From positions 13,563 to 77,562 of the forward strand of contig DYLW01000001.1 in assembly GCA_020721865.1 (NCBI GenBank): a DNA stretch of 64,000 nt, given 5' to 3'. Position numbers and translations under genes: made by a program. This DNA is from Leptospira biflexa (lineage in GTDB: Bacteria > Spirochaetota > Leptospiria > Turneriellales > DYLW01). This document shows positions 21,021-35,938 of the stretch, piece after piece (position 1 is the stretch's first letter; each line of letters starts with the position of its first letter). The notes under the pieces were generated by a model. That model saw nothing but the letters and a program-made list of their open reading frames with translations, made no database searches and was not told the DNA's origin.

Positions 21021-22316
21021 TCAATGCACAGAGCAGGATATGCAAGGGTCATAGGCCCGCACCAGCATTTCGCACTGGCGGATCATCCGGTCTTCCGTGA
21101 AATCCTGGGCAACCATTTCCGCGACATAGGAGCGTAGATCATAATGGATATTCGCATTATTCTGGGTTGTGGGGATAACGCAGTTTGCCCGGCGAATAGT
21201 TCCTCTGGAATCAATTTCATAATCATGATAAAGGATTCCACGCGGAACCTCCACCGCTCCAATACCCACACCTTCCCGGGGAACAACCGGCTGGAGATAA
21301 TCTTCCTGGCGGATTTTATTGTAATGTGCCAGATCATGGAAAAAATCCAAAAGTTCCTGGTAAACATGGACCACCTCCACCACCTGGGCAATATTATTCA
21401 TAAATGGATTATGATTCACGGGAGACAAACCCAACCTTTGTGCAGTTTCTTTGGCGACTTTATTCAGGTGGGAATAATTATTATTCACTCTGGCCAGTGA
21501 GCCGGCGGCGAAGGATTCCCGGCTGAGCTTTGCGAATTTACTGGTGGAAAAATCCACCACATATTCATTGGTCAACTCCAGATAATCTTTTTCATTTTTG
21601 AGAACTCCGTCTGTGGAAACAACATTGCCTCCAATCCAGGGAAACGGGTCCAATCTGTCCTCCCCTCCCTTGAGAGAGACAAATTCCGTTTCTCTGATAA
21701 AACCCGGCATTTTAAGGGAGGCAAAGATATCCACCATTTTTTGGAGCTGTTCCTTCCCCTCTTCCAGCCGGGTAATCATAGCTTCAACTTCCATTCGCCG
21801 GGGAACCCGGGAAACCCCTCCCGGCTGCAGGGTGACAGGATGCGTAGTCCTCCCCGCTACCAGATCGCAGATATCATTGGCCAGCTTCTTAAAGAATAGT
21901 GCCAGACGCACCGTTTCCGGATTTTTGGCCAGGATGGGAATTACACTTTCTTCATTAAAAAAATCCGGAGCTACCAGAAAAAAAAGATGCAGGATGTGGC
22001 TTGTGATGGTCTCTCCGTGTTTGGCCGCCAGCCGGAGTTTCTGGGCAAGAGGAGGTGGTTCAAACCCAAAGGCTTTTTCCACCGCACGCACCGAAGCCAG
22101 TGCATGACCAATGGAACAGATTCCGCAGATTCGGGATGTCAACAGAGGAGCGGTTTCATAACTTTTTCCCACCAGCATAGCCTCAAAAAATCGGGGGGTT
22201 TCCACCACCATCCATCGGGCATCTTCCAGTTTCCCATCCCGCACGCGAATCATAATATCCCCATGGCCTTCCACCCGGGTGAGATGCTTGATATCTGCAT
22301 TTACTGTTATCTTCAT
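21021..22316 (-). CDS. [NiFe] hydrogenase large (alpha) subunit, cytosolic group 3 (3b/sulfhydrogenase-like)
   Basis: N-terminal Ni-binding motif RICGICSIGH and C-terminal DPCISCSVH followed directly by TGA. About 430 aa, as in soluble group 3 enzymes. Confidence 0.9.
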   Translation of the reverse strand: MKITVNADIKHLTRVEGHGDIMIRVRDGKLEDARWMVVETPRFFEAMLVGKSYETAPLLTSRICGICSIGHALASVRAVEKAFGFEPPPLAQKLRLAAKHGETITSHILHLFFLVAPDFFNEESVIPILAKNPETVRLALFFKKLANDICDLVAGRTTHPVTLQPGGVSRVPRRMEVEAMITRLEEGKEQLQKMVDIFASLKMPGFIRETEFVSLKGGEDRLDPFPWIGGNVVSTDGVLKNEKDYLELTNEYVVDFSTSKFAKLSRESFAAGSLARVNNNYSHLNKVAKETAQRLGLSPVNHNPFMNNIAQVVEVVHVYQELLDFFHDLAHYNKIRQEDYLQPVVPREGVGIGAVEVPRGILYHDYEIDSRGTIRRANCVIPTTQNNANIHYDLRSYVAEMVAQDFTEDRMIRQCEMLVRAYDPCISCSVH

Positions 22317-22325
22317 ATATATCTC

Positions 22326-23087
22326 CTATTCCGTCGCATTCAGGGAATGAAGAGAATGGAATAAATTCAATTTTTCCATAATATCCTCATCCGTAAATCC
22401 CATCCGATAAAAAACATTTTTCAACTCCGGCCAGTTTGTCTCATCCGCCGGCCCCCGGCAGCCATAGCAGGGCAGTTTTCCACCCGGGCATGGAGCATCA
22501 CAACCCGCACGGGTTACCGGTCCAAAGCACATCTTCCCCTCATCCAGAAGACAGTGATTCATGTTCCGTTTACATTCAATGCACACGGGATATTTTTCAA
22601 AATGAAACTCCGCCGATGTGACAAGATGTACCACAATCTTTTCCACTTCCTTTTTGGAAACCGGACAGCCGGGTATGGATAGATCCACCGGAATCACTTC
22701 GTGGATGGCCTTTACGGGCAGAGACTCTTTGGGCTGGTTTCCGTAAACGATGTAATTGTTCTCTGCTACGCTCCGCAAATTGGCCGATTTATTCACACCC
22801 CCAAATACCGCACAGGTACCCAGAGCCACCACGACGGAAGCTTGTGCCCGGATTTTCTCCAAGCGGTCAATCTGGTCCTGGCGGGAAGCCGAACCTTCAA
22901 TAAACGCAATATCATAGTCCTGTCTGTGGCTGGAGGATATTTCCCGAAAATTGACAATCTCTACCAGGTTTAAAAAATCGGCCAGGGTTTCTTCTTTATT
23001 TGCCATTTGGAGCTGGCAACCCTCACAGCAGGTAAAATCAAAAAAGGCCACTTTGGGCTTTGCGGTTTCTATTCCAAGATACTGCAT
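22326..23087 (-). CDS. [NiFe] hydrogenase small (delta) subunit
   Basis: Proximal-cluster motifs FDFTCCEGC, GTCAVFGG and IPGCP, plus distal Cys clusters (CIECKRNMNHC, GCDAPCPGGKLPCYGCRG). No Tat signal, so the enzyme is cytoplasmic. Confidence 0.9.
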   Translation of the reverse strand: MQYLGIETAKPKVAFFDFTCCEGCQLQMANKEETLADFLNLVEIVNFREISSSHRQDYDIAFIEGSASRQDQIDRLEKIRAQASVVVALGTCAVFGGVNKSANLRSVAENNYIVYGNQPKESLPVKAIHEVIPVDLSIPGCPVSKKEVEKIVVHLVTSAEFHFEKYPVCIECKRNMNHCLLDEGKMCFGPVTRAGCDAPCPGGKLPCYGCRGPADETNWPELKNVFYRMGFTDEDIMEKLNLFHSLHSLNATE

Positions 23088-23099
23088 AATTTCTCCTTG

Positions 23100-24002
23100 T
23101 TAAATGGCTTCCTTCAGATTCATGACCGTCCAATAATCCATCACTGGACCGTCCACACAGGTAAAGGTGGAACCCACCATGCACCGGCAGCATTTTCCCA
23201 TGCCACAGTGCATTCTCCGCTCCAAATCCACATACATTCTATTCATGGGGATTCCCTTTTCGCTTAAATCCGCACAAACATATTTAAACATCACAGGCGG
23301 GCCGCAGACCACAGCATAAGTATTCTGGACATCCATCTCCTTATCCTTGAGCAAATCTGTGATCATTCCGGTCTTGCCTGACCAGCCTGGAGACTTTTCT
23401 TCCGATATTATTTCAATTTCACAATCGTATATTTTTTCCCATTCTTTAAACTGGTATTCAAATAAAATCTGACTGGGGGTTTTCACTCCGTACAGGATGT
23501 AAATTTTTCCATATTGAGAGCGGTGTTCATTAATCCAGAAAATGGGGCCACGCAGAGGGACAATGCCCAATCCTCCGGCAATCAGCAAAATGTCCTTCCC
23601 GGTCATTTTCTCCATGGGGAAATGGGTGCCAAAGGGGCCCCGGATTCCCACCGTAGAGCCGATCTTCGCATTATGGAGAACCCCGGTCACCTTGCCGGCT
23701 TTCCGGATACATAGCTCAATCTGCCCCACAAAAGCTGTGGAAGCAGAGAGGGATATGGGAACTTCTCCAAATCCGGGAACTTCCACCATCACAAACTGGC
23801 CAGGAAGAAAATGGAATACCTTGGCCTCTTCCTCATGGATAAACTGGAGCCGGAACAGTTTTTCATGTTCGGTAAGAGCCACAATATTGGTTATTTGGAC
23901 TTCATAGACCTTATCCGTTTTCATCAGCGATGCTTTTCTGTTGAAATCCGGCATCATATTCAAGGACGGAGTTAGATTAATATCTTCCACCGGTATTTTC
24001 AT
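23100..24002 (-). CDS. Hydrogenase gamma subunit: FAD/NAD(P)-binding oxidoreductase with a C-terminal 2Fe-2S cluster (PyrK-like)
   Basis: Ferredoxin-reductase fold blocks ([27 protein letters not shown]) and a Cys cluster ([25 protein letters not shown]). The start at 24002 forms an ATGA overlap with the beta-subunit stop. The ORF-track start 24104 lies inside the upstream gene. Confidence 0.85.
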
Positions 24003-25054
24003 TTTTCCCTCCGCATTATATGTTCTTTGTTCAGATCCGCAATAATTTCCGCCGGATTGATCCCCACCGGACATGCGTCCCCGCAGCGGTTGCAGCCCAC
24101 ACATTTGGGCTCATCATAGCTTTCCACAAAACCCCGGTGCTGGTGGTAAAAGCGGTATTTTAACCTTTTTTCCGGATCCGGCCGAAAATTATGGCCACCG
24201 GCCACCTCCGCGAAATCGACCAGATTACAGGAATAGAGAGCTCTTTTTTTACTGGCGGTACGGAGCGATGGATCAATTTCTTCGGTCACGGTGTAACAAT
24301 AACAGGTGGGACAAACCATAGCACAACTCCCGCAGCTCAGGCATAAAGAACCCCATTTTTTCCAGACATCGGATTCAAATTCCAGATCCATCAGATTGGA
24401 AAGATCACTGATATCCACTTTTGTTGTAAAAGATTCCCGGATTCTGGACTTAATCCTTTTATAATCTTCCTGATCTTCCTCTGTTACTTCCTGTATTTCA
24501 AAACCGGAAAGAATCTCCATCGCTTTGGATGAATTGATTTTCATAAAATATTTTTCCCCCATATCCGTGAGAAAAATATCAAAGCCATGGCTCACATTAT
24601 CCGATCCCACTGACCGGCAGAAGCAATCCTCTAAGGCCTCATGATCCAGACCAATGATAAATGTATTTTTCCTTCTGGCAATATAATACGGATTGGGGAA
24701 ATGCCCATGCATCAATACTTTGTCCAGCTTGAGCAGAGCATCCACATCGCAGGAGCGGGCACCAAAAATTACCCTGGGATGAATGGTATATTCAATCTGC
24801 TGGCTCCATTGGCTTTTGCTGAAGTCAAACCGGGACAGAGTTTCTTCATAGGGGATGAAAAAATTCTTTATGGATGAATAACTTTTTGTATAATTAAAGT
24901 CTATTTCATCATAATCCCAAACCTGGTCAAACTGGTAAACCGGTTTCTTATTTTTATCATAATCTTTAATGACCGGAGCAATCAGAGTATTATCCTTCAT
25001 GACTTCTGTCAAAAACTTTTTGAAATCGTGCTTATACATGGTCTTGTATATCAT
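23999..25054 (-). CDS. Hydrogenase beta subunit: 4Fe-4S dicluster protein (HydB/AsrA-like)
   Basis: Two ferredoxin-type motifs, [16 protein letters not shown] and [12 protein letters not shown]. First gene of the beta-gamma-delta-alpha set; AAGGAA lies 7 nt upstream of the ATG. Confidence 0.85.
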
Positions 25055-25793: not shown

Positions 25794-26561
25794 ATGAAAA
25801 ACCCTTTTTATCGGGGAGAAAAAAAGAATTATAAAAATGCCGGGGCGTTTTCGCAAAAGGTGGAACAATTAAAATCCTTTGCCACCATCCTTTCTCCGGT
25901 GGTAGCCTTTCTGGGAGTTATTCTCTTGTTTTTTTCCATACAGGATCCGGATAATATAAAAGAAATAGATAATCTTCTGGACCAGAAAAAATACCAGGAG
26001 GCATTCCTTCTTTCCCAATCCTCCCTGTCCACAAATCCCGGAAACATGGAAATCTTTTTTCGGACGGCTTATGCCGAATATTTTATGGAAGATTCCAAGG
26101 AAAATCCCCATCCCGTTTATTTCCAGCGTTTCCTCCGGAAAGATCTCATGAGTCTGCAATCCGGAATTCTGCTCCAGAAACTTCTGGCCGATGGGCGGGG
26201 AACCCGGGGATATTTTAATCTGTTCTGTGAATCCATGCGACGGGGAATTTTTGAGGATGCCCGGATGAAAAGTGTATTTTTGAGTGAATTTACGGATGGC
26301 AGGGATTTTTACATCCAGGACAGGTTCTGCCTGGAAATGGCCTTCCGTAAGCAGATCCCATTTCTGGCTCCCCATATATTCCATACCATACAATCCTGTC
26401 CAATTCTGGATACCCACGCAAAACCAATGGGAAATTTAGCAAGGGGCACCCTGGTATTGTTCCGCAATAATCCGGATGACCTCACCGCAAGAATACTGCT
26501 CCGCAGCGGAGAAACAGTATTTGTTGCAACCTCCTGCATAGCCCCCCACCATCAGCCTTAA
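25794..26561 (+). CDS. Membrane-anchored hypothetical protein
   Basis: One TM helix (FATILSPVVAFLGVILLFF), a helical middle region and a possible small beta domain at the C-terminus. No recognised motif. Confidence 0.5.
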   Translation: MKNPFYRGEKKNYKNAGAFSQKVEQLKSFATILSPVVAFLGVILLFFSIQDPDNIKEIDNLLDQKKYQEAFLLSQSSLSTNPGNMEIFFRTAYAEYFMEDSKENPHPVYFQRFLRKDLMSLQSGILLQKLLADGRGTRGYFNLFCESMRRGIFEDARMKSVFLSEFTDGRDFYIQDRFCLEMAFRKQIPFLAPHIFHTIQSCPILDTHAKPMGNLARGTLVLFRNNPDDLTARILLRSGETVFVATSCIAPHHQP

Positions 26562-27271
26562 GGAAGTGCCGTCGATTTTTTGGATCCCTCCCCTTCCGTC
26601 TTTCCCATAACACTCCAGGGGTTTTTTTCAATCTGTTTGGATAACCTCTCCAGAGATTCCGTGGTTTTTCTCACATTGGTCAGAATGACCGGGATTTCCA
26701 CAGAAGAGGAATCCAGAATATGGTTCACCTTGACAATGGAGGAATTGAGATTCAGCAACAGCATTTTAACAGAATTTTTATTCACATCCGCCATATTGGA
26801 GAAAGAGGCTATCAATTCGCTCACATTGGCCACGGCGGAGGATATATGGTTAATCATCTCATCCAGATTGACAATATTTCCCGCATAAAGAGTATCCCCG
26901 TTCTGCAGAAGGTATTTTCTTTCCGTGGATGGAATAATCTCCATAATAGTATCCCCAATCACATTCTGGTTGGAAATATTCAGACGGGTTCCCCTGTATA
27001 GCTGCAGTCCGGGGTCCACTGAAATGATGGCCTTGAAATAAATATCATCCCCGTATATGGGAATAACATCCATTACTTCCCCCACGGTATAATTTTTCAA
27101 CTTAACTGCGGTCCCCTTTTTCACCCCGCCCAATTTTTCCATACGTACCAGATAGGATACCCGGTTATCCAATAAATGGTATCCGAATAAAAACGTTATA
27201 GTACCAATGGCAAGGATCAGACCCACCACAACAAATAACCCGGTAAAAATATCATCTTTATTTACTTTCAT
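26558..27271 (-). CDS. MCE/MlaD-family protein
   Basis: N-terminal TM helix (IFTGLFVVVGLILAIGTITFLFGY) and an MCE beta-barrel block (GGVKKGTAVKLKNYTVGEVMDV..ISVDPGLQLYRGTRLNISNQNVIGDTIMEIIP), then a helical C-terminal region. Confidence 0.8.
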   Translation of the reverse strand: MKVNKDDIFTGLFVVVGLILAIGTITFLFGYHLLDNRVSYLVRMEKLGGVKKGTAVKLKNYTVGEVMDVIPIYGDDIYFKAIISVDPGLQLYRGTRLNISNQNVIGDTIMEIIPSTERKYLLQNGDTLYAGNIVNLDEMINHISSAVANVSELIASFSNMADVNKNSVKMLLLNLNSSIVKVNHILDSSSVEIPVILTNVRKTTESLERLSKQIEKNPWSVMGKTEGEGSKKSTALP

Positions 27272-28049
27272 CTTCTTCCTGCCTGAAATTCATGGGTCCG
27301 CTTAAAGGATGCCGGAGATACTGGTCCACATAGGCATTGGACGTGTACAGTGAATTTCCATCAAATACTATTTTTCCGTCATACAGCATCAAAAACCTAT
27401 TTCCATATCCCGATACAACGGTCGGCATATAGGTGGATATTATAAATGATATATTATCTTTTACAATATCTTTTTCTGCAATTTCCAGAAAATGGGCAAG
27501 GGATAACGGGCAGTGCCCATCGAACGCATTATCCGCCAGAATCAATGCGGGTTTCATAATGAGAGCCCGTGCAAAAACCACCCTGAGGATTTCGCTGGCA
27601 ATCAGTTTCTGCGGACGATCATTTTCTCTTTTCTTCAAGCCATACTGGCGGATCAGACTGTCCGCTTTTTCCTGCATTTCCTCTTCCAACATCCGGGTGT
27701 GATAGCGTAAGGGCAGAAGGATATTCTCTCTCACAGAGAGATTATTGATCAGCCCGGAACGTCCGGTCACATAACCAATATTTTTTCTGAATTCTTCCAG
27801 TTCTTCCTTTCCAGCTTCGGAAACAGACCGATTGGCCAGTATGACATTGCCGGTGTCCGGTTTTATTTTTCCGGTAATTAATGGGAGGATAAAATCCTTT
27901 CCGCTTTTTTCCGGTCCAAAGATTACCAGGTTTTTTCCGCTTTCCAGATCAAAGGAGATATCCTCCACCTTTTCCATTTTTGTTTCATCGTTGTAGGAAA
28001 CTCCGGTCAGACTCAGAATAATCCCATCATTTATATTTTTATCCATCAT
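27258..28049 (-). CDS. ABC-ATPase-like protein with degenerate catalytic motifs (MlaF-like position)
   Basis: ABC fold is recognisable, but Walker A is GPEKSGKD, the signature is LIASE and Walker B is LILADN. ATG 28049 forms ATGA with the trkH stop; ATG 28058 is the alternative. The ORF-track start 28211 lies inside trkH. Confidence 0.7.
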   Translation of the reverse strand: MMDKNINDGIILSLTGVSYNDETKMEKVEDISFDLESGKNLVIFGPEKSGKDFILPLITGKIKPDTGNVILANRSVSEAGKEELEEFRKNIGYVTGRSGLINNLSVRENILLPLRYHTRMLEEEMQEKADSLIRQYGLKKRENDRPQKLIASEILRVVFARALIMKPALILADNAFDGHCPLSLAHFLEIAEKDIVKDNISFIISTYMPTVVSGYGNRFLMLYDGKIVFDGNSLYTSNAYVDQYLRHPLSGPMNFRQEEDESK

Positions 28050-29521
28050 TTTATCCATAAACGGGGCAGACCCAATGCCAGGATGGGGAGTAATTCCAGA
28101 CGCCCCAACAGCATATAGAAAGATAAAATCCATTTGGCGTAATCCGGCAGAGCGGAATAATTCTGGGACGGCCCCACTTCCCCAAATCCAGGGCCAATAT
28201 TGCTGATGCAAGCCACCACCACTGAGGCAATTGTCTCAAAATTTTTCCCTGTGAGAGAAAGAAGAATAATCCCCAGGATATAAAGCAGAATATAAATAAT
28301 CACAAAAGAATTAATGGACTCCACAGTTTCTCTGGGAATCCTCATTTCCCCAAAACGAATAGTATACACCCTGGATGGATGGACAATCTGCCCAATCTGC
28401 CGAATGGCTTCTCTGGTCAGGGTCATCACCCGGATAACCTTAATACCTCCGGCGGTGGAACCCGCTGACCCGCCTATAAACATTAAAAAGAGAAGAATAA
28501 ATTTGGAAAAAGTTGGCCATTTATCAAAGTCTTCCGTGCCATATCCGGTGGTGGAAACAATGCTCAATGTGGCAAAAGAGGAATGCCGGATTATCTCCCC
28601 CAAGGAATTATAAATTTTATTTGCATATAAATCCAAAGCTATTGACAGTATGGCAAATGTAACAATGGAAAAATAAAAGCGGAATTCATAGTTTTCCCAA
28701 TATGCCCGGAAATTTCCTTTCAGTCCCTCATAATGAAGGGCAAAATTACCGCCGGCAATAAACATGAACAGGATAATCACCACTTCATAGTACAGAGCCA
28801 TGGGATGGTGAACCTTCGCGTAATGGCCAATGGAAGCATTCAGAGGAGAAAATCCCCCTGTGCCCATTGTACCAAAAGTATGGGTGGCGGATTCAAAAAT
28901 ATTCATTCCCCCTAAAAACAGAAGAAGAAATAATACAATGGTAAGAATTGTATATACATAGTATAAAATCCTGGCGGTTTCTCCAATCCGGGGGACAATC
29001 TTATCTGTGGAAGGACCGGGTGCTTCCGCAGAAAACAATTCCGTCCCTCCCCGCCCCAATGCCGGTAAGATGGCGACAGAAAGAACAACAATTCCCATCC
29101 CTCCCAACCAGTGGGTGAATGATCTCCATAGAAGAGTGGTATGTCCCAGAACTTCAATATTGGACAAAATGGAAGCTCCGGTAGTGGTAAATCCGCTCAT
29201 GCTTTCAAAATACGCATCCGTGAAGGATGGAATATCTCCGGATATATATAGCGGGAGGGCTCCAAAGAAGGCAAGGATGATCCACCCCAGCCCGGATGTG
29301 GCAAACGCCTCCCGGAATGTGATATTTTGTTTTTCCACTTTTCCGGCAGCCAATATCAGAAAAAAACCCACGAAGGCGGCAATAACGCCTGGGGTAAGGA
29401 AGAAAACACCCTGGTTTTCCAAAGGATAAATAATATATCCAACGAAAGCAAATACAAAAAAGAACCCGGACAATAAAAAAATAAGCCTTCCCAGAATGGA
29501 TGTAAGTATCGCGTAGTTCAT
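28046..29521 (-). CDS. trkH: Trk-type K+ uptake membrane subunit TrkH
   Basis: About 490 aa polytopic protein with the repeated selectivity-filter-like motifs MSGFTTTGAS, GTMGTGGFS, STTGYGT and GGSAGSTAGGIKV. Confidence 0.9.
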   Translation of the reverse strand: MNYAILTSILGRLIFLLSGFFFVFAFVGYIIYPLENQGVFFLTPGVIAAFVGFFLILAAGKVEKQNITFREAFATSGLGWIILAFFGALPLYISGDIPSFTDAYFESMSGFTTTGASILSNIEVLGHTTLLWRSFTHWLGGMGIVVLSVAILPALGRGGTELFSAEAPGPSTDKIVPRIGETARILYYVYTILTIVLFLLLFLGGMNIFESATHTFGTMGTGGFSPLNASIGHYAKVHHPMALYYEVVIILFMFIAGGNFALHYEGLKGNFRAYWENYEFRFYFSIVTFAILSIALDLYANKIYNSLGEIIRHSSFATLSIVSTTGYGTEDFDKWPTFSKFILLFLMFIGGSAGSTAGGIKVIRVMTLTREAIRQIGQIVHPSRVYTIRFGEMRIPRETVESINSFVIIYILLYILGIILLSLTGKNFETIASVVVACISNIGPGFGEVGPSQNYSALPDYAKWILSFYMLLGRLELLPILALGLPRLWIK

Positions 29522-29523
29522 AG

Positions 29524-30993
29524 TTAAAATATATCGTTTATTTTATCAATCAGGTTTCGCCTGGCAAAAATAATAATATGGTCATTGGCTTCCAGAACAG
29601 TGTTGCCTTTTGCGGGTACCATCTCTCCATTTCTAAATATTCCCACAATAATTGATTCCCGTGGCAATTCACACTCAGAGATAGGCTTACCCAGAGCCCG
29701 CCCGTTTTCCTGGAGAATGAATTCCATCAATTCAATATCATCCCCAATAGCGGAAATAACATCAAATACATTGTAATGGAAAATACGCAGTAATTTCTCC
29801 ACCAGAAGATGTTTGGGAACAATGGCTGCATCCACCGCCAGATACGGCATCAACTGGACAAATTGGGTGTCCTGGATAATGGCAATGGTTCGGGCTCCGG
29901 TTTTTTCCTTTACCATCAGGCTGCTCAGAATATTATTTTTCTCATCATTGGAAGCAGCAATAAAAATACAGTTTTCATCCAAACCCTCATCTTTCAGGAT
30001 ATCCATCCGGTCAAAATCAATGTTTAAAACCTGGATTTTTTCCCGGTAATAATCCGTAATATAATATGATCTTCGTTTATCTTTTATCAGAAGGTACACT
30101 GTTTTCCCAGAATATTTCTCAACCAGGCGTTCTGCCAGCCGCTCAGAAAAAATACCCCCGCCCAGAATAAAAATATGTTTGAAACTTTTTTTTATTTCCG
30201 GGTCAAAGATTTCCCCCACCCCATCAAAGGAATCTTTTTTACCACTGATGTACAGCAGATCTCCCGTTTTTATCACGTAGTCACCACGGGGAATCACTGT
30301 TTTGTCGATGGTCCTTTCCACTTCCACCCGATCACCCCGGAACAGGGAAAAAAAACCGGGCTTTTTCTCCTCGACAACCATATTCGTGGTCACTGCCGCC
30401 ACCAGAAGATCTTCAAATTTTTTCACATGCTGCAACCCCACCAGCCGTTTTCCGGAGAGGAGAGAATTTTCTTTTACTCTGTACACATTTATCTGGAGCC
30501 TTCCCTCATGGAGAGGAATGGTATCGATTGTCCCCGGATTCTCAATTAAGTTTTCAATTTCCCTGGTGGCAATAGCTGTCTGGTTAAATAAAAGGTCAAT
30601 CCCATTGTCTTTCCAGTAATTTTTACTGATGGGAGAATCTTCGTATTCCCGGTAAAAACTCCTGTATACTCTGGCTATAGTGGTGGGGCAGCCATGGGCT
30701 CGGGCCATCTGGCAGGCCAGAATATTAACCTCATCATAGTTGGTCACGGCAATGAGCATATCATCGCGAGTAAACTGCAATTTGGAAAGAAGAGACGGAT
30801 CGCAGCCATGGCCATGGATAAAGGAGGCATCCACACTTTTCGCCTGTTCCCGGATGGTCTCATCTTCATCCACTAATATCACATTAAAACCCTCATCACT
30901 CAGTCTGCCAACCAGATACATCCCAATCTGGCCTGCTCCGATGACAATGATTCTCTTGGGGGGAGAGTTTCTGATCTTATTGCCAGAGTCCAT
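29524..30993 (-). CDS. trkA: Trk system NAD-binding subunit TrkA (tandem RCK domains)
   Basis: Two Rossmann RCK_N units (IIVIGAGQIGMYLVGRL; IFILGGGIFSERLAERL), each followed by an RCK_C-like segment. Confidence 0.9.
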   Translation of the reverse strand: MDSGNKIRNSPPKRIIVIGAGQIGMYLVGRLSDEGFNVILVDEDETIREQAKSVDASFIHGHGCDPSLLSKLQFTRDDMLIAVTNYDEVNILACQMARAHGCPTTIARVYRSFYREYEDSPISKNYWKDNGIDLLFNQTAIATREIENLIENPGTIDTIPLHEGRLQINVYRVKENSLLSGKRLVGLQHVKKFEDLLVAAVTTNMVVEEKKPGFFSLFRGDRVEVERTIDKTVIPRGDYVIKTGDLLYISGKKDSFDGVGEIFDPEIKKSFKHIFILGGGIFSERLAERLVEKYSGKTVYLLIKDKRRSYYITDYYREKIQVLNIDFDRMDILKDEGLDENCIFIAASNDEKNNILSSLMVKEKTGARTIAIIQDTQFVQLMPYLAVDAAIVPKHLLVEKLLRIFHYNVFDVISAIGDDIELMEFILQENGRALGKPISECELPRESIIVGIFRNGEMVPAKGNTVLEANDHIIIFARRNLIDKINDIF

Positions 30994-30996
30994 AGC

Positions 30997-31305
30997 CTAT
31001 TGAACATGCCTCCGCTGTAATTCCCGGGAAACATCTTCCCATGTTATCCCAATTTCAGCAAAAGCCACGGTCAAATGGTAAATAAGATCGGCCGCTTCCG
31101 ACACTGCCCGATTTTGTGAGTCCGGATAATTATTTTCCCGCAAATTTTTCGCATCCAGAATAAATTCCACACTTTCTTCACCCACCTTCTGGAGAATTTT
31201 ATCCACCCCTTTCTGAAAAAGCCGGGTAGTGTACGAGCCTTCCGGCATTTCCCGTTTTCTCTGGTGAATGATTTTTTCCAGAGTGATAACAAACAAGTCA
31301 TCCAT
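30997..31305 (-). CDS. hisE: Phosphoribosyl-ATP pyrophosphohydrolase (stand-alone HisE)
   Basis: SYTTRLFQKGVDKILQKVGEESVEFILD..SEAADLIYHLTVAFAEIGITWEDV is the typical HisE/MazG-type helix pair. About 100 aa. Confidence 0.85.
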   Translation of the reverse strand: MDDLFVITLEKIIHQRKREMPEGSYTTRLFQKGVDKILQKVGEESVEFILDAKNLRENNYPDSQNRAVSEAADLIYHLTVAFAEIGITWEDVSRELQRRHVQ

Positions 31306-31335: not shown

Positions 31336-32448
31336 CTATCCATTATCATTGTTCTCCCGCATTATATTCAGAAGAATACCAAACATGGCACAATACACCA
31401 GAAGAGATGTCCCCCCATAGCTCATGAAGGGCATATTGATTCCCGTGGTGGGCACCAGTCCCATGGTAACGGCAATATTGATGGTTACCTGAAAAGCAAA
31501 AATCAAAATGATACCGCTACCCAGGAGCCGCCCAAAATTCTCTTCTATGGACGATATCAAATACAAGGAGTAGAGAATAATTCCCAGATAGGCTGCATAA
31601 AGAATAAAAATTCCGGCAAATCCCAGGTCTTCCGCAACCACAGACAGGATAAAATCGGTATGGCGGGCGGACAGATTATGCCGGCGGATTCCCTCTCCCA
31701 ATCCCTGCCCGAATACACCTCCGGCCTCAAAAGACTGGAAAGAGGCAATCAACTGGTATGCTCCTTCATAGCGATAACGGATGGGATCAATAAACGCTTT
31801 AATTCTATCCCAACGGTAGGGGACCTGCACCACTCCATAATAAATAACGGGAAAAGAGGTTATGATTGTTAAAAAAATATAAACCAGTGGGAAGTCTGTT
31901 AAAAAAAGCAAAGCCAGAATAACAATGCCAAAATGGAAAGCGGTACTGAAATCCGGTTCCAAAAAAATTAGTCCAACAGGAAGCATCGCTAACAGAAAAG
32001 TCAAGGCGGTTCGTTTAATCCCCTGAAAATTATTGTTAGAATACAGCCGTGTCAGAAGCACAACAACGGCAAAACGGGCCAGATCGGAAGGCTGTATGGA
32101 AATTATCCCCAGATTAATCCATCGGCTGGCCCCGCCCGCTTTTTTTCCCAACCCCGGAACAAAAACCAGAGTAAGCAGAAGAATCGAGATCATATAAATG
32201 GGCCAGGCAAACTCCTTCCATTTCATATAATGAACTCTGCTCAGAAAAAAAAGAAGCCCCAAACCCATCAAAGCAAACAATGCCTGTTTTTTCAGATAAT
32301 AATACGGATCCCCAAATTCCTGTCTGGCCAGAAAGGAAGAGGATGCAAGGAGAACATTCAATCCCAAAAACAGAAGGAATATAATGAAACCGAATAAAAT
32401 ATAATTACTCTTTTTTTCGGAATGCAATCTATCTGCAATATAATCCAT
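31336..32448 (-). CDS. SEDS-family peptidoglycan glycosyltransferase (RodA/FtsW)
   Basis: About 10-TM protein with SEDS blocks (INLGIISIQPSDLARF, HTDFILSVVAEDLGFAG, GINMPFMSYGGTSLL). No neighbouring pbp or mur gene helps decide between RodA and FtsW. Confidence 0.85.
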   Translation of the reverse strand: MDYIADRLHSEKKSNYILFGFIIFLLFLGLNVLLASSSFLARQEFGDPYYYLKKQALFALMGLGLLFFLSRVHYMKWKEFAWPIYMISILLLTLVFVPGLGKKAGGASRWINLGIISIQPSDLARFAVVVLLTRLYSNNNFQGIKRTALTFLLAMLPVGLIFLEPDFSTAFHFGIVILALLFLTDFPLVYIFLTIITSFPVIYYGVVQVPYRWDRIKAFIDPIRYRYEGAYQLIASFQSFEAGGVFGQGLGEGIRRHNLSARHTDFILSVVAEDLGFAGIFILYAAYLGIILYSLYLISSIEENFGRLLGSGIILIFAFQVTINIAVTMGLVPTTGINMPFMSYGGTSLLVYCAMFGILLNIMRENNDNG

Positions 32449-32456
32449 TTTTGCCT

Positions 32457-33539
32457 TCAGAACCCGCCCGCACTTTTCAGCTTGATTTCCTTTTCGGCCA
32501 GAAAAAGTGCTTGGAATAAATCATCCATATTCCCCGCCAATATTCCATCCAAATTATGGGAAGTAAAATGAATTCGGTGGTCAGTGAGCCGATTCTGGGG
32601 GAAATTATAGGTACGTATCTTTTCAGACCGGTCACCGGAACCAATCTGCATTTTCTTTTCTGCGGACATTTTCTCATGGGATTCCTCTTTGATTTTTTCC
32701 TGTAAACGGGCATTCAGTATCCGCAAAGCCTTTGCCTTATTTTTATGCTGGGATTTTTCATCCTGGCAGGAAACGACCAGACCAGTCGGGATATGCGTTA
32801 CCCGGACAGCAGAATCCGTTGTGTTCACAGACTGACCACCCGGACCGGAGGAGCGGTAGACATCAATCCGGAGTTCATTGGGTTCAATAACCATCTCTTG
32901 TTCATCCGCCTCCGGAACCACCGCAACGGTGACAGCGGAAGTATGGATTCTTCCTCCGGATTCTGTCTCCGGTATCCTCTGCACCCGATGAGTGCCTTTT
33001 TCAAAATGAAAATAATTATAGGCCTGCTCCCCCTTAACCAGAAACACGACCTCTTTAAAACCTTTTAAACCCGTCTCCTGGATGTCCATCACTTCATAGG
33101 GAATTTTATTGCTCTCCATAAACCGTGTATACATTTTGTATAAATCCGCCGCAAAAAGAGCTGCTTCTTCTCCACCGGTTCCTGCCCGGATTTCTACAAA
33201 AACATTTTTTCCGGAATCCGGATCCTGGGGAAGCATCAGGATTTTTATATCTTCTTCCAGATGTTCCATGCTCTGCTCCAGATGATCAATTTCTTCTAAA
33301 AGCATATTTTTCAGTTCGGAGTCCTTTTCCAGAGATATCTGGTCTTTGAGTGCTTTTTTTTGCTTTGCACTTTCCTGGATTTCGCGTATCTTCTCCACTA
33401 ATGGCTGCAATTGGTTTCGTTTGCGGGAAAGTTCAATCATCCGGTTGTTATCCCGCGATGTCTCCGGCATGGATAATTCGCTCACAATCTCATCATAAGC
33501 ATTCAGAATTTCATCGTATCTGCGCTCATCCTCGTGCAT
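32457..33539 (-). CDS. prfA: Peptide chain release factor 1
   Basis: GGQ motif (SGPGGQSVNTTDSAVR) and an RF1-type PxT tripeptide context (RIPETESGGRIHTSA). No frameshift site, which is as expected for RF1. Confidence 0.92.
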   Translation of the reverse strand: MHEDERRYDEILNAYDEIVSELSMPETSRDNNRMIELSRKRNQLQPLVEKIREIQESAKQKKALKDQISLEKDSELKNMLLEEIDHLEQSMEHLEEDIKILMLPQDPDSGKNVFVEIRAGTGGEEAALFAADLYKMYTRFMESNKIPYEVMDIQETGLKGFKEVVFLVKGEQAYNYFHFEKGTHRVQRIPETESGGRIHTSAVTVAVVPEADEQEMVIEPNELRIDVYRSSGPGGQSVNTTDSAVRVTHIPTGLVVSCQDEKSQHKNKAKALRILNARLQEKIKEESHEKMSAEKKMQIGSGDRSEKIRTYNFPQNRLTDHRIHFTSHNLDGILAGNMDDLFQALFLAEKEIKLKSAGGF

Positions 33540-33580: not shown

Positions 33581-35488
33581 CTACAGCCGGAAGAAGTCCA
33601 CCGCTTTTTTCAGTTCCTTTGCTTTCTCAACCAAAGTCATGGCGGTGGCGGAAAGCTCTTCTGATGCGGAGGCAGTAGTCCGGGTGGTGGTGTTCAATTG
33701 TTCCATCCCGATATTGACCTCACTGACACCATGAAGCTGCTCCCGGGAAGACGTTTTAATGGCCTCCACATTTACCGCCGTATCCCCGGAGGCAGGAATA
33801 ATGGCCATGATATCATTCCCAGTGGTTTCCGCCACGGACACACTGGAATGGGCCAGCTCGCTGATTTCTTTGGAGGCATGGGAAGCCTCATCGGCCAGTT
33901 TATTGATCTCATTGGCCACCACGGCAAACCCCTTCCCCATTTCTCCGGAACGGGCAGCTTCTATGGTAGCGTTCAGAGCCAGAAGATTGGTCTGCTCGGC
34001 TATGCTTTTAATAATGCCGATTTTTTCTGAAATTTTCAGAAGAGCATCCAGAGATCGTTTCACGGATTCCCCTCCGGCTTTTGCCAGATTGGAAGACCGT
34101 GCAGCCAGGGCATTGGTTTCGTTTGCTTTATCCAGATTGGATGAAATATTTTCCTCAATGTTAGATAAAGTGGCAGAAATCTCCTCCACACTGGCCGCCT
34201 GTTCGGAAGCACTCTGGGAAAGTCTCTGGCTGGTGGCCTCAATTTCCGATGAGAAGGACAACACCTCTTCCGTATTTTTTATTATGGAAGAAATAGTGTC
34301 CTTCAATATTTCCGCCGTTTTCAAGATTTTATTCACAATTTTTCCGATTTCATCATCATTGAATTGGACATCCAGAGTAAAAGACAAATCTCCGGAAGAT
34401 ATTGAATCGGCCACTTCCACGGCATGAGCCAGAGGCCGAAAGATCATTTTACGAAAAACAAACCGGATAATCAGAAAAACAAAAAGGACGGAGATTATTA
34501 ACAAAACCGGAATCAATACCAGAAGCAGATTCATTTCCCGCTGCCCATCAGAAAAATCCCGGAAAAAAATCCCATAACCAATGATCTTTTTTTCATAATC
34601 CTCTATTGGGAAAATGGAAATAAAATAATTTTCCACAATAGTATGGTTTACCCCGGAATTAAATAAATTGGCCTCTAATTTTTCCGCAATATTCAGAAAT
34701 AATTCCCTATTCGTGGAGGACACAAAAACCATATTTCCCAAAACTGGATTTTTTTCCGGATTCCGCAGTTGATCCGCTACGGAAAGAAATTCCTTTCTCA
34801 TAACCACACTCAGAGTTTCTTTTTCTGAATACTGGATTTTTTGGAAAATTCCATCAAAAGAACCCAACACTTCCACCGTGCCGATTATCTTATTCCCATC
34901 CACGATGGGGCATATCCCACGGATGGCAAATCCATCATTGCCTATTTCAATGCCCTTGATATCCCTCATCTTTCCGGAAGTAATATCCAGGATGGTCTGG
35001 CGAAATCCACGCAAATCATCGGAAATATCCATCCATTTCCCATTTTTTCTGATCTGCTTATCCCGCCACAGACGCACCAGGCTTCGGGCCGGGGGCAGAT
35101 GAAAATGAAGATTCAGCTTCTCCCCTTCCGAAGCCTCAAACTCATCCATATTTTTTTTCAGTGACTTCCGGAGCATCTCCCGGGCAGCCTGGGATTGGGG
35201 AGAGTTTTCATCATTAATATTTCCGGAATACGCCATTTTATACGCCGGAAGAACCGATCTTTCTGTGGAATAAAACAATGCCTGAAGATAACTGGAGTGT
35301 GCAGTCTGCTGGATAAAATGACGGATTTCTTCAATTTTGAGATTATTCAAAGCCTTTGCTTCATTGTCCAATCGTTTACCAATATGAATGAGAAGGAAAA
35401 AAGCGAACAAGGTAAACATGACCAAACTCAGGACAATCACAAAAACAAGGATTTTAATTTCAATGGATTTATTAAATAGTTTTTTCAT
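33581..35488 (-). CDS. Methyl-accepting chemotaxis protein with a Cache-type periplasmic sensor and HAMP
   Basis: ATG 35488 gives [19 protein letters not shown].. (TM1). Sensor block [32 protein letters not shown], then TM2, HAMP and the MCP hairpin ([32 protein letters not shown]). The ORF-track start 35644 runs into the divergent STAS gene. Confidence 0.9.
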
Positions 35489-35611
35489 TCTTGGCGATTT
35501 CCGTTCGACGGAATATAATGGCCATTCAATTGATAAAGCAAATTTTAATAAAATCAGGAGAATAGTGAAAATAAATTGACACCTTGTGCGGAAAAAATAA
35601 TCGTATGAACG

Positions 35612-35938
35612 ATGGAGATAAAAACAAGGGATCTGGGACAGCATAAGGTTCTCATTGTAACGGGAGACATTGATTTATATAATGTGGGTCAACTGAAAAA
35701 AGCCATTTTTAACCTGCTGGATGAAGAAGATATTGAGTCTCTGGTTGTGGACATGAGTGGTATTAATTACATGGACTCCTCCGGGGTGGGGGCTCTGGTG
35801 GCTGGACAGAAAAAAGTAAAATCCCAAGGCGGAAAATTCGCCCTGCTGAGTATCAGAGAAGACGTACTCAATATTCTGAAACTGGCCACTCTGGACCAGT
35901 TTTTTACCATATACGAAAACGAAACGGATATTAAATAA
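35612..35938 (+). CDS. STAS-domain anti-sigma-factor antagonist (SpoIIAA/RsbV-like)
   Basis: About 108 aa. [19 protein letters not shown] carries the conserved phosphorylatable Ser in the DSSG context. Confidence 0.85.

Follow-up and report, generated by a model that had tools for sequence, protein, structure and literature searches.

We describe here ABC*, a gene found in a 64-kb stretch of DNA (64,000 nucleotides; the window hereafter) from a genome labelled Leptospira biflexa, contig DYLW01000001.1. It encodes an MlaF-like nucleotide-binding-domain (NBD) protein of the ATP-binding cassette (ABC) type, and is followed by a gene for an MlaD-like protein of the MCE family. The five motifs of ATPase competence (Walker A, Q-loop, signature, Walker B D-E and H-loop) are all degenerate in ABC*, both in profile alignments and in multiple alignments. 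We consider it moderately probable that ABC* and the MlaD-like protein together make up the conserved centre of an Mla-type (MCE) complex for envelope lipid transport, specific to spirochaetes, where ABC* would be a non-hydrolysing structural subunit and the permease would be encoded elsewhere.

In terms of fold and kinship, ABC* carries the Pfam domain ABC_tran (PF00005) with an E-value of 4.7e-21 and 76 bits, against a curated cut-off of 25. Its best sequence matches among solved structures are MlaF proteins, those of Acinetobacter baumannii (7d06 and 6z5u, E 7e-24) and also those of Escherichia coli and Pseudomonas aeruginosa. The AlphaFold2 model has a mean predicted local distance difference test score of 90.9 and a predicted TM-score of 0.87. 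The top Foldseek match of this model is 6xbd_I, the E. coli MlaF in MlaFEDB, with a TM-score of 0.88 and a root-mean-square deviation of 1.8 Å over 252 columns. With BLASTP, ABC* is 27% identical to E. coli MlaF (E 3e-21), against 19% for E. coli SapD (E 0.017), and orthology with the ABC protein SapD (TrkE) is rejected.

The likeness includes the C-terminal extension typical of MlaF. The tail of ABC* can be aligned with MlaF of E. coli and A. baumannii up to residue 256-257, G-P motif included, and the structural match covers it too. The family described below conserves residues N238, Q243, G251 and P252 of this tail. In MlaF, this extension wraps around the neighbouring protomer, in a “handshake” role (PMC7790496). 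The NBD models of NCBIfam give a different picture, with PhnC, FtsE, DarD, DevA, LolD and LptB at 95-87 bits, against 84.6 bits for the MlaF equivalog, whose cut-off is 441. We provisionally place ABC* in the MlaF branch of ABC NBDs as a degenerate member, which agrees with MlaF in fold, C-terminal tail and MlaD linkage and departs from it in the ATPase motifs and the equivalog score.

Motif positions were taken from HMMER alignments to the MlaF structures 7d06, 6z5u and 6xbd/7cgn (E 7e-24 to 3e-19) and from independent MAFFT alignments with E. coli MlaF. A preliminary description of this DNA, made from its letters only, had claimed that every catalytic motif is degenerate. The profile alignment keeps all motifs where that description had placed them, and an intact Walker A, Walker B or signature was not recovered. 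In Walker A, the fourth Gly is replaced by Lys and the final Ser/Thr by Asp, while the Lys is retained. The Q-loop Gln has become Gly, the catalytic Glu of Walker B is an Asn and the D-loop Asp is a Cys (C180). The canonical His of the H-loop aligns with T206 or Y207, and the surrounding SFIISTYMPT contains no His. At the level of sequence, these alignments bear out the earlier suggestion that ABC* would be a pseudo-ATPase.

The same losses are seen across the family. A canonical signature occurs in none of the 92 non-identical members, and neither does a His at the aligned H-loop position. The catalytic Glu is missing in nearly all 92, with the P0207/P0032-type sequences reading E-E or Q-E at Walker B. 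Because it is common to all 92 non-identical members, motif degeneracy is no chance effect of a single sequence. The family has in turn invariant residues of its own: G-x-E-x-S-G in the P-loop, S-E in the signature and the D-loop Cys (GQCP, GHCP, ALCP or GQCL). Within the P-loop, the Lys and the Ser/Thr are variable. The P-loop region ranks second in conservation among the blocks (0.78, consensus G.E.SG..). These family-specific residues suggest that the former ATP site was rebuilt for a structural role, and we speculate that it became a nucleotide-free dimer interface. The D-loops of paired NBDs face one another in NBD dimers, and because of this opposition Cys180 could be a redox-sensitive or metal-binding dimer contact.

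The family comprises at least 92 distinct sequences, all with an intact reading frame. A first homology search returned four close relatives, all of them with degenerate motifs. In a profile search of a collection of 5.8 billion proteins, family members score at least 237 bits, against at most 173 for the next ABC proteins. The gap is seen again in the set of retrieved loci, where members reach 256 bits or more and the others 172 bits or less. In a library of 1.84 billion representatives, about 20 clusters at 50% identity head the list. The sequences come from metagenome-assembled genomes (MAGs) of Leptospirales type, labelled Spirochaetota, Spirochaetia, Leptospiraceae or Turneriella, and from the cultured Turneriella parva. 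Current annotations read only “ATP-binding cassette domain-containing protein”, “MlaF” or “FtsE”; the T. parva member (WP_014803953.1/AFM13451.1) bears the first or the last of these. The closest genome locus (L007, 94% identical) belongs to a sulfidic-cave MAG, also labelled Leptospira biflexa. In the searchable literature, including PMC10665443, a lineage with a dead MlaF is undescribed. We report it as a previously undescribed family, a pseudo-ATPase branch of MlaF.

ABC* is under strong purifying selection. Compared with L007, the ratio of nonsynonymous to synonymous substitution rates (dN/dS) is 0.057 for ABC*, 0.093 for trkH, 0.099 for the MlaD-like gene and 0.133 for trkA. The highest conservation in the family lies at residues 99-117 (GLI.N..V.ENI.LPL.YH), with 0.83 against a protein mean of 0.54.

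A neighbour-joining tree and the motif table split the family in two clades. Clade A, that includes the window protein, keeps the P-loop Lys (GPExSGK[DESN]) and also the Asp of Walker B, with N, S, M or A in the next position. In Turneriella-type members, the P-loop is the canonical GPEGSGKS and the Q-loop Gln is present. At least four different gene contexts are seen in clade A, all with the order ABC*-MlaD and with no MlaE next to the pair. In the sister clade B, the P-loop Lys is lost (GxExSG[I/A/L/V/T]x) and Walker B mostly reads h-h-h-h-E-H, with E-Y and E-F as variants. Here the order is MlaE-ABC*-MlaD, with more than 30 such loci, some of them on two complete MAG chromosomes. The MlaE of this clade is very conserved, with 53-80% identity. 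MlaEFD has been described as the ancestral and widespread core of Mla systems (PMC10665443), and the order mlaE-mlaF*-mlaD of clade B matches this “ancestral MlaEFD core”.

The partner gene downstream of ABC* in the window has a Pfam MlaD match of 35.6 bits (E 1.1e-8), above the cut-off of 25.1, and falls short of the MlaD equivalog of NCBIfam (34.6 bits, cut-off 135). Its weak matches among solved structures are Mce/MlaD proteins. The sequence reads as an N-terminal transmembrane helix at about residues 9-29 (hydrophobic stretch FTGLFVVVGLILAIGTITFLF), an MCE domain at residues 39-114 and a helical C-terminal part with an NPW...ALP tail. This tail, NPW...(A)ALP, is conserved in the MlaD of clade A (residues ~217-237), and is lacking in the MlaD of clade B, encoded with an adjacent MlaE, that ends in HPVKFLFK.

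The coupling of ABC* to an MCE protein, already proposed in the preliminary description, is borne out. The ABC* stop codon (TAA, 27260-27258) lies inside the MlaD-like reading frame, which starts at 27271, and the overlap of 14 nt noted there is real. The pairing with MlaD holds in most loci of the family. Moreover, the MlaD partners divide into the same two clades as ABC*, which indicates co-evolution of the two proteins. Exceptions are the L013-type loci and P0222. MlaE-ABC* without a downstream MlaD is seen in L010, L011, L013, L014 and L042, with a LipB-like gene next in the clade-B locus L013 (9163-11376), and P0222 has ABC* alone, with no MlaE or MlaD close by. From these loci, the genes of the system appear to scatter between genomes.

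As for the permease, neither tblastn with the MlaE of E. coli and of clade B nor profile searches of all six-frame open reading frames found an MlaE in the 64-kb window. The other clade-A loci likewise showed none within 8-10 kb. A second MlaF-like gene is also absent from the window, and MlaB, MlaC and MlaA were not seen. The preliminary description had stated that the pair has no permease. This stands as a local statement about the 64 kb and does not extend to the family, where the sister clade sits in MlaE-ABC*-MlaD operons. In ABC NBDs, the permease inserts its coupling helix into a groove formed by the segment that follows the Q-loop. The coupling helix of MlaE has been described (PMC7790496). 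By analogy, we presume that the block at residues 99-117 forms this groove in ABC*; it is equally conserved in both clades, and conserved in canonical MlaF as well. The cytoplasmic part of the MlaD-like protein has only about 8 residues, so MlaD alone offers the NBD nothing to hold. A permease partner is favoured because this block is the most conserved of the protein, because the sister clade is found in MlaE operons and because the genes scatter. An ABC*-MlaD pair without any permease is unlikely, and we think that the clade-A mlaE is, on balance, encoded elsewhere in the genome.

The following arrangement would accommodate these observations. The ABC* and MlaD-like genes would be translationally coupled and their products would form the core of an MCE complex. 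A dimer of ABC* would dock under an MlaE-type permease through the 99-117 block (GLINNLSVRENILLPLRYH) and be held by the C-terminal handshake tail, thus acting as a structural clamp or assembly subunit of the MlaE-MlaD complex and not as its motor. Lipids would then pass MlaE and the MlaD ring without being driven by ATP hydrolysis, and their flow might be equilibrative or have another drive. In the lineage of the window, mlaE would be unlinked, elsewhere in the genome, and the placement behind trkA-trkH would be an accident of gene order in that lineage. For the whole family, including the MlaE-containing sister clade, we give about even chances to an ABC-architecture lipid transporter that works without ATP.

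Several observations weigh against this model. MlaE was not seen within 8-36 kb in any clade-A locus examined (the window, L007, L026, L002/L008, L027, L108, L030, L034 and L114). A spirochaetal MlaE profile search gave 1142 matches at E<1e-20, and among the best 120 of these there was no known clade-A contig, genome name or Turneriella. In addition, all of clade A still has the Lys of Walker A and the Asp of Walker B, and the Turneriella type keeps both its canonical P-loop and the Q-loop Gln. Together with the rank of the P-loop as second most conserved block, these residues would fit a nucleotide switch, that is, a clade-A ABC* that binds ATP without hydrolysis, or hydrolyses it very slowly in a non-canonical way, and so gates the transporter. 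We regard such a switch as unlikely, although clade A, above all its Turneriella type, may still bind ATP without hydrolysing it. In the window protein, the P-loop glycine and the Mg-binding Ser/Thr are replaced, as is the Q-loop Gln. No member of the family has a canonical signature or the H-loop His, and nearly all are without the catalytic Glu. The sister clade has no P-loop Lys, yet it is equally conserved and found in full operons. Because of this loss in clade B, nucleotide binding is not a common requirement of the family. Activity could also be sought in a heterodimer with a canonical MlaF; this rescue was rejected, since ABC* is degenerate in its Walker motifs as well as in its signature, which leaves both composite sites defective.

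The degenerate motifs and the local lack of mlaE could also be explained by a decaying relic, an mlaF turning into a pseudogene once mlaE was gone, or by an artefact of assembly in which mlaE dropped out. Such a history is extremely improbable. The dN/dS of ABC* is as low as or below that of trkH and trkA, the frame is intact in 92 distinct sequences with their own invariant residues, and the AlphaFold2 model is confident. Furthermore, the same gene order is found in independent assemblies from different samples (L007, L025 and L026), and the assembly artefact that the preliminary description had allowed for is contradicted by them. Selection and independent assemblies together effectively rule out the pseudogene, relic and artefact readings.

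The position of ABC* behind trkA and trkH raises a different possibility, also put forward in the preliminary description, of a functional tie to Trk K+ uptake. In its explicit form, clade-A ABC*-MlaD would have no MlaE-type permease, and the dead NBD would dock on TrkH/TrkA as a SapD/TrkE-like subunit or adaptor, linking K+ uptake to the MCE protein and joining the MCE ring to a membrane partner outside the ABC class. In the window, the start codon of ABC* overlaps the stop codon of trkH, as had been noted, and no MlaE is present in the 64 kb. The order trkA-trkH-ABC*-MlaD is found in L007 (94% identity), and is kept in L025 and L026 despite an ABC* identity of 57%. A precedent exists in E. 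coli, where the ABC protein SapD (TrkE) confers ATP dependence on TrkH/TrkG, according to the passage of PMC9898762 that cites Harms 2001. We nevertheless hold this tie to be very improbable. L007 and L026 both share the string prfA-rodA/ftsW-hisE-trkA-trkH-ABC*-MlaD in synteny, and in L026 the synteny with the window runs from the methyl-accepting chemotaxis protein gene through PhaR to the hydrogenase. Because the whole neighbourhood is shared, the trk linkage counts as one evolutionary event, and since the string also holds prfA, rodA and hisE, of unrelated functions, co-directional packing has little functional meaning here. The trkH/ABC* junction varies among relatives, being adjacent in L025 and separated by a 9-nt gap in L026. 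Other clade-A loci of ABC*-MlaD have no trk genes, and show upstream a MiaB-like radical-SAM gene (Turneriella type), an aminotransferase (L114) or other genes (L002/L008). Downstream, a convergent hypothetical gene and then PhaR are common across clade-A contexts. As these downstream neighbours are shared while the upstream genes differ, the trk genes were juxtaposed secondarily. Finally, ABC* is MlaF-like and not SapD-like, and the sister clade is embedded in MlaE operons. The trk linkage is thus confined to one syntenic lineage of the family and is probably no part of the system.

When compared with known systems, ABC* is closest to the MlaF of MlaFEDB (E. coli, A. baumannii and P. aeruginosa; 6xbd, 7d06 and 7ch8), its top sequence match among solved structures, with which it has in common the fold, the C-terminal extension and a gene overlapped by, and co-transcribed with, an MlaD/MCE gene. 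The differences are the degenerate Walker A, Q-loop, signature, Walker B Glu, D-loop and H-loop, and the lack of an mlaE within the 64 kb; MlaB, MlaC and MlaA were not seen either. Actinobacterial MceG/Mkl of Mce systems (8fed) is another MlaF-like NBD serving MCE proteins (Foldseek TM-score 0.85-0.87, phmmer E 6e-19). MceG is encoded away from the mce permease/MCE operons, and provides a precedent for unlinked components. It is an active ATPase with canonical motifs, however, and in the ABC* lineage it would be the permease, and not the NBD, that is unlinked. SapD (TrkE) shares with ABC* a genetic tie of an ABC-type NBD to Trk K+ uptake, which for ABC* is by gene adjacency only and in one lineage only; SapD is an Opp/Dpp-type NBD with intact motifs.

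Degenerate NBD sites persist as structural or regulatory elements in heterodimeric ABC transporters such as TAP1, CFTR NBD1 and TM287/288. These keep one consensus hydrolysing site with a canonical partner, whereas ABC* is degenerate in both halves. A single chain is expected to form a homodimer, and because its Walker A, Walker B and signature are degenerate, no consensus ATP site would be left. A canonical partner was not found: the window contains no other NBD gene, and none recurs as a conserved neighbour of the family loci. PqiAB and LetAB are MCE-based envelope lipid systems without an ABC ATPase. They use the PqiA/LetA membrane proteins and have no NBD, in contrast with the ABC* family, which keeps the ABC architecture with the NBD inactivated.

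Some partly degenerate MlaF-like groups, with the signature and/or the H-loop lost, were also observed in Fibrobacterota and Latescibacterota/Gemmatimonadota MAGs (P0077, P0103, P0081, P0054 and others, from the representative search, and P0225-P0247). MlaF-like NBDs fused to GGDEF are present in Desulfobacterales. NBD decay in MCE systems may be broader than the ABC* family.

The features of the window are listed in Table 1. At the trkH/ABC* junction, trkH ends in ...CGT TTA TGG ATA AAA TGA at 28046. A possible ATG of ABC* lies at 28049-28047, with other in-frame ATGs at 28058 and 28046. A promoter and terminator scan of 25.5-34 kb gave promoter-like sites at chance level, uninformative for this junction, and no terminator between the genes.

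Table 1. Features of the ABC* region, with positions in the 64-kb window.
Feature	Positions	Strand	Basis or remark
Methyl-accepting chemotaxis protein, dCache_3 sensor	33581-35644	(-)	directly 5' of prfA
prfA	32457-33539	(-)	open reading frame (ORF) list, Pfam/NCBIfam
FtsW/RodA-family gene (rodA/ftsW)	31336-32448	(-)	ORF list, Pfam/NCBIfam
hisE	30997-31305	(-)	ORF list, Pfam/NCBIfam
trkA	29524-30993	(-)	ORF list, Pfam/NCBIfam; 5' of ABC* in the same string
trkH	28046-29521	(-)	ORF list, Pfam/NCBIfam; directly 5' of ABC*
ATGA overlap, trkH stop / ABC* start	28046-28049	(-)	sequence read
ABC* gene, 263-aa MlaF-like NBD protein	27258-28049	(-)	ORF list, sequence, Pfam ABC_tran
Walker A, residues 45-52, GPEKSGKD	27894-27917	(-)	canonical/MlaF GPSGTGKT or GPSGIGKT
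Q-loop G96 (for Gln) and conserved block, residues 99-117, GLINNLSVRENILLPLRYH	27699-27764	(-)	alignments
Signature LIASE, residues 149-153	27591-27605	(-)	canonical LSGGQ/M (MlaF LSGGM); family form L-x-x-S-E
Walker B LILAD173-N174 (catalytic Glu to Asn) and D-loop DGHC180P	27510-27545	(-)	alignments
Cys180 of the D-loop	27510-27512	(-)	
H-loop region, residues 203-209, IISTYMP, no His	27423-27443	(-)	family form T-Y-x-P
MlaF-type C-terminal extension, residues 238-256, N.YV.QYL..PLSGPM	27282-27338	(-)	alignment to MlaF
MlaD-like MCE protein, 237 aa	26558-27271	(-)	ORF list, Pfam MlaD
MCE domain of the MlaD-like protein	26930-27157		Pfam MlaD
NPW...(A)ALP tail of the MlaD-like protein	26561-26623	(-)	
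255-aa convergent gene, one N-terminal transmembrane helix	25794-26561	(+)	no Pfam match
NiFe-hydrogenase four-gene cluster	21021-25054	(-)	

The 255-aa convergent gene directly after MlaD is also found in L007, L026 and L002/L008 (profile E 1.6e-7), and in L114 its position is taken by a gene with a weak SH3_3 match. A PhaR-like gene comes next in the window, L026 and L114. The convergent gene is a possible accessory to ABC* and MlaD. Further along lies the cluster of four genes, which code for the large and small (Oxidored_q6) subunits of a NiFe-hydrogenase, for an FAD/NAD-binding subunit and for a 4Fe-4S subunit. The product resembles a soluble bidirectional or sulfhydrogenase-type enzyme. 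The cluster is syntenic in L026, as is the chemotaxis gene on the other side. There are no tRNA genes in the whole window.

Mla/MCE transporters are central to the lipid homeostasis of the outer membrane, and the direction and energetics of their transport are debated. The ABC* lineage is in this respect a natural experiment, with an expected NBD homodimer that has no consensus ATP site, and yet with the NBD, MlaE (in the sister clade) and MlaD under purifying selection. Present annotations of the family conceal this loss of function. The family would show what MlaE-MlaD does without ATP hydrolysis, and what an NBD contributes besides hydrolysis, be it assembly, permease clamping or regulation. 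A cultured and genome-sequenced member, that of Turneriella parva DSM 21527 (WP_014803953.1), makes direct testing possible.

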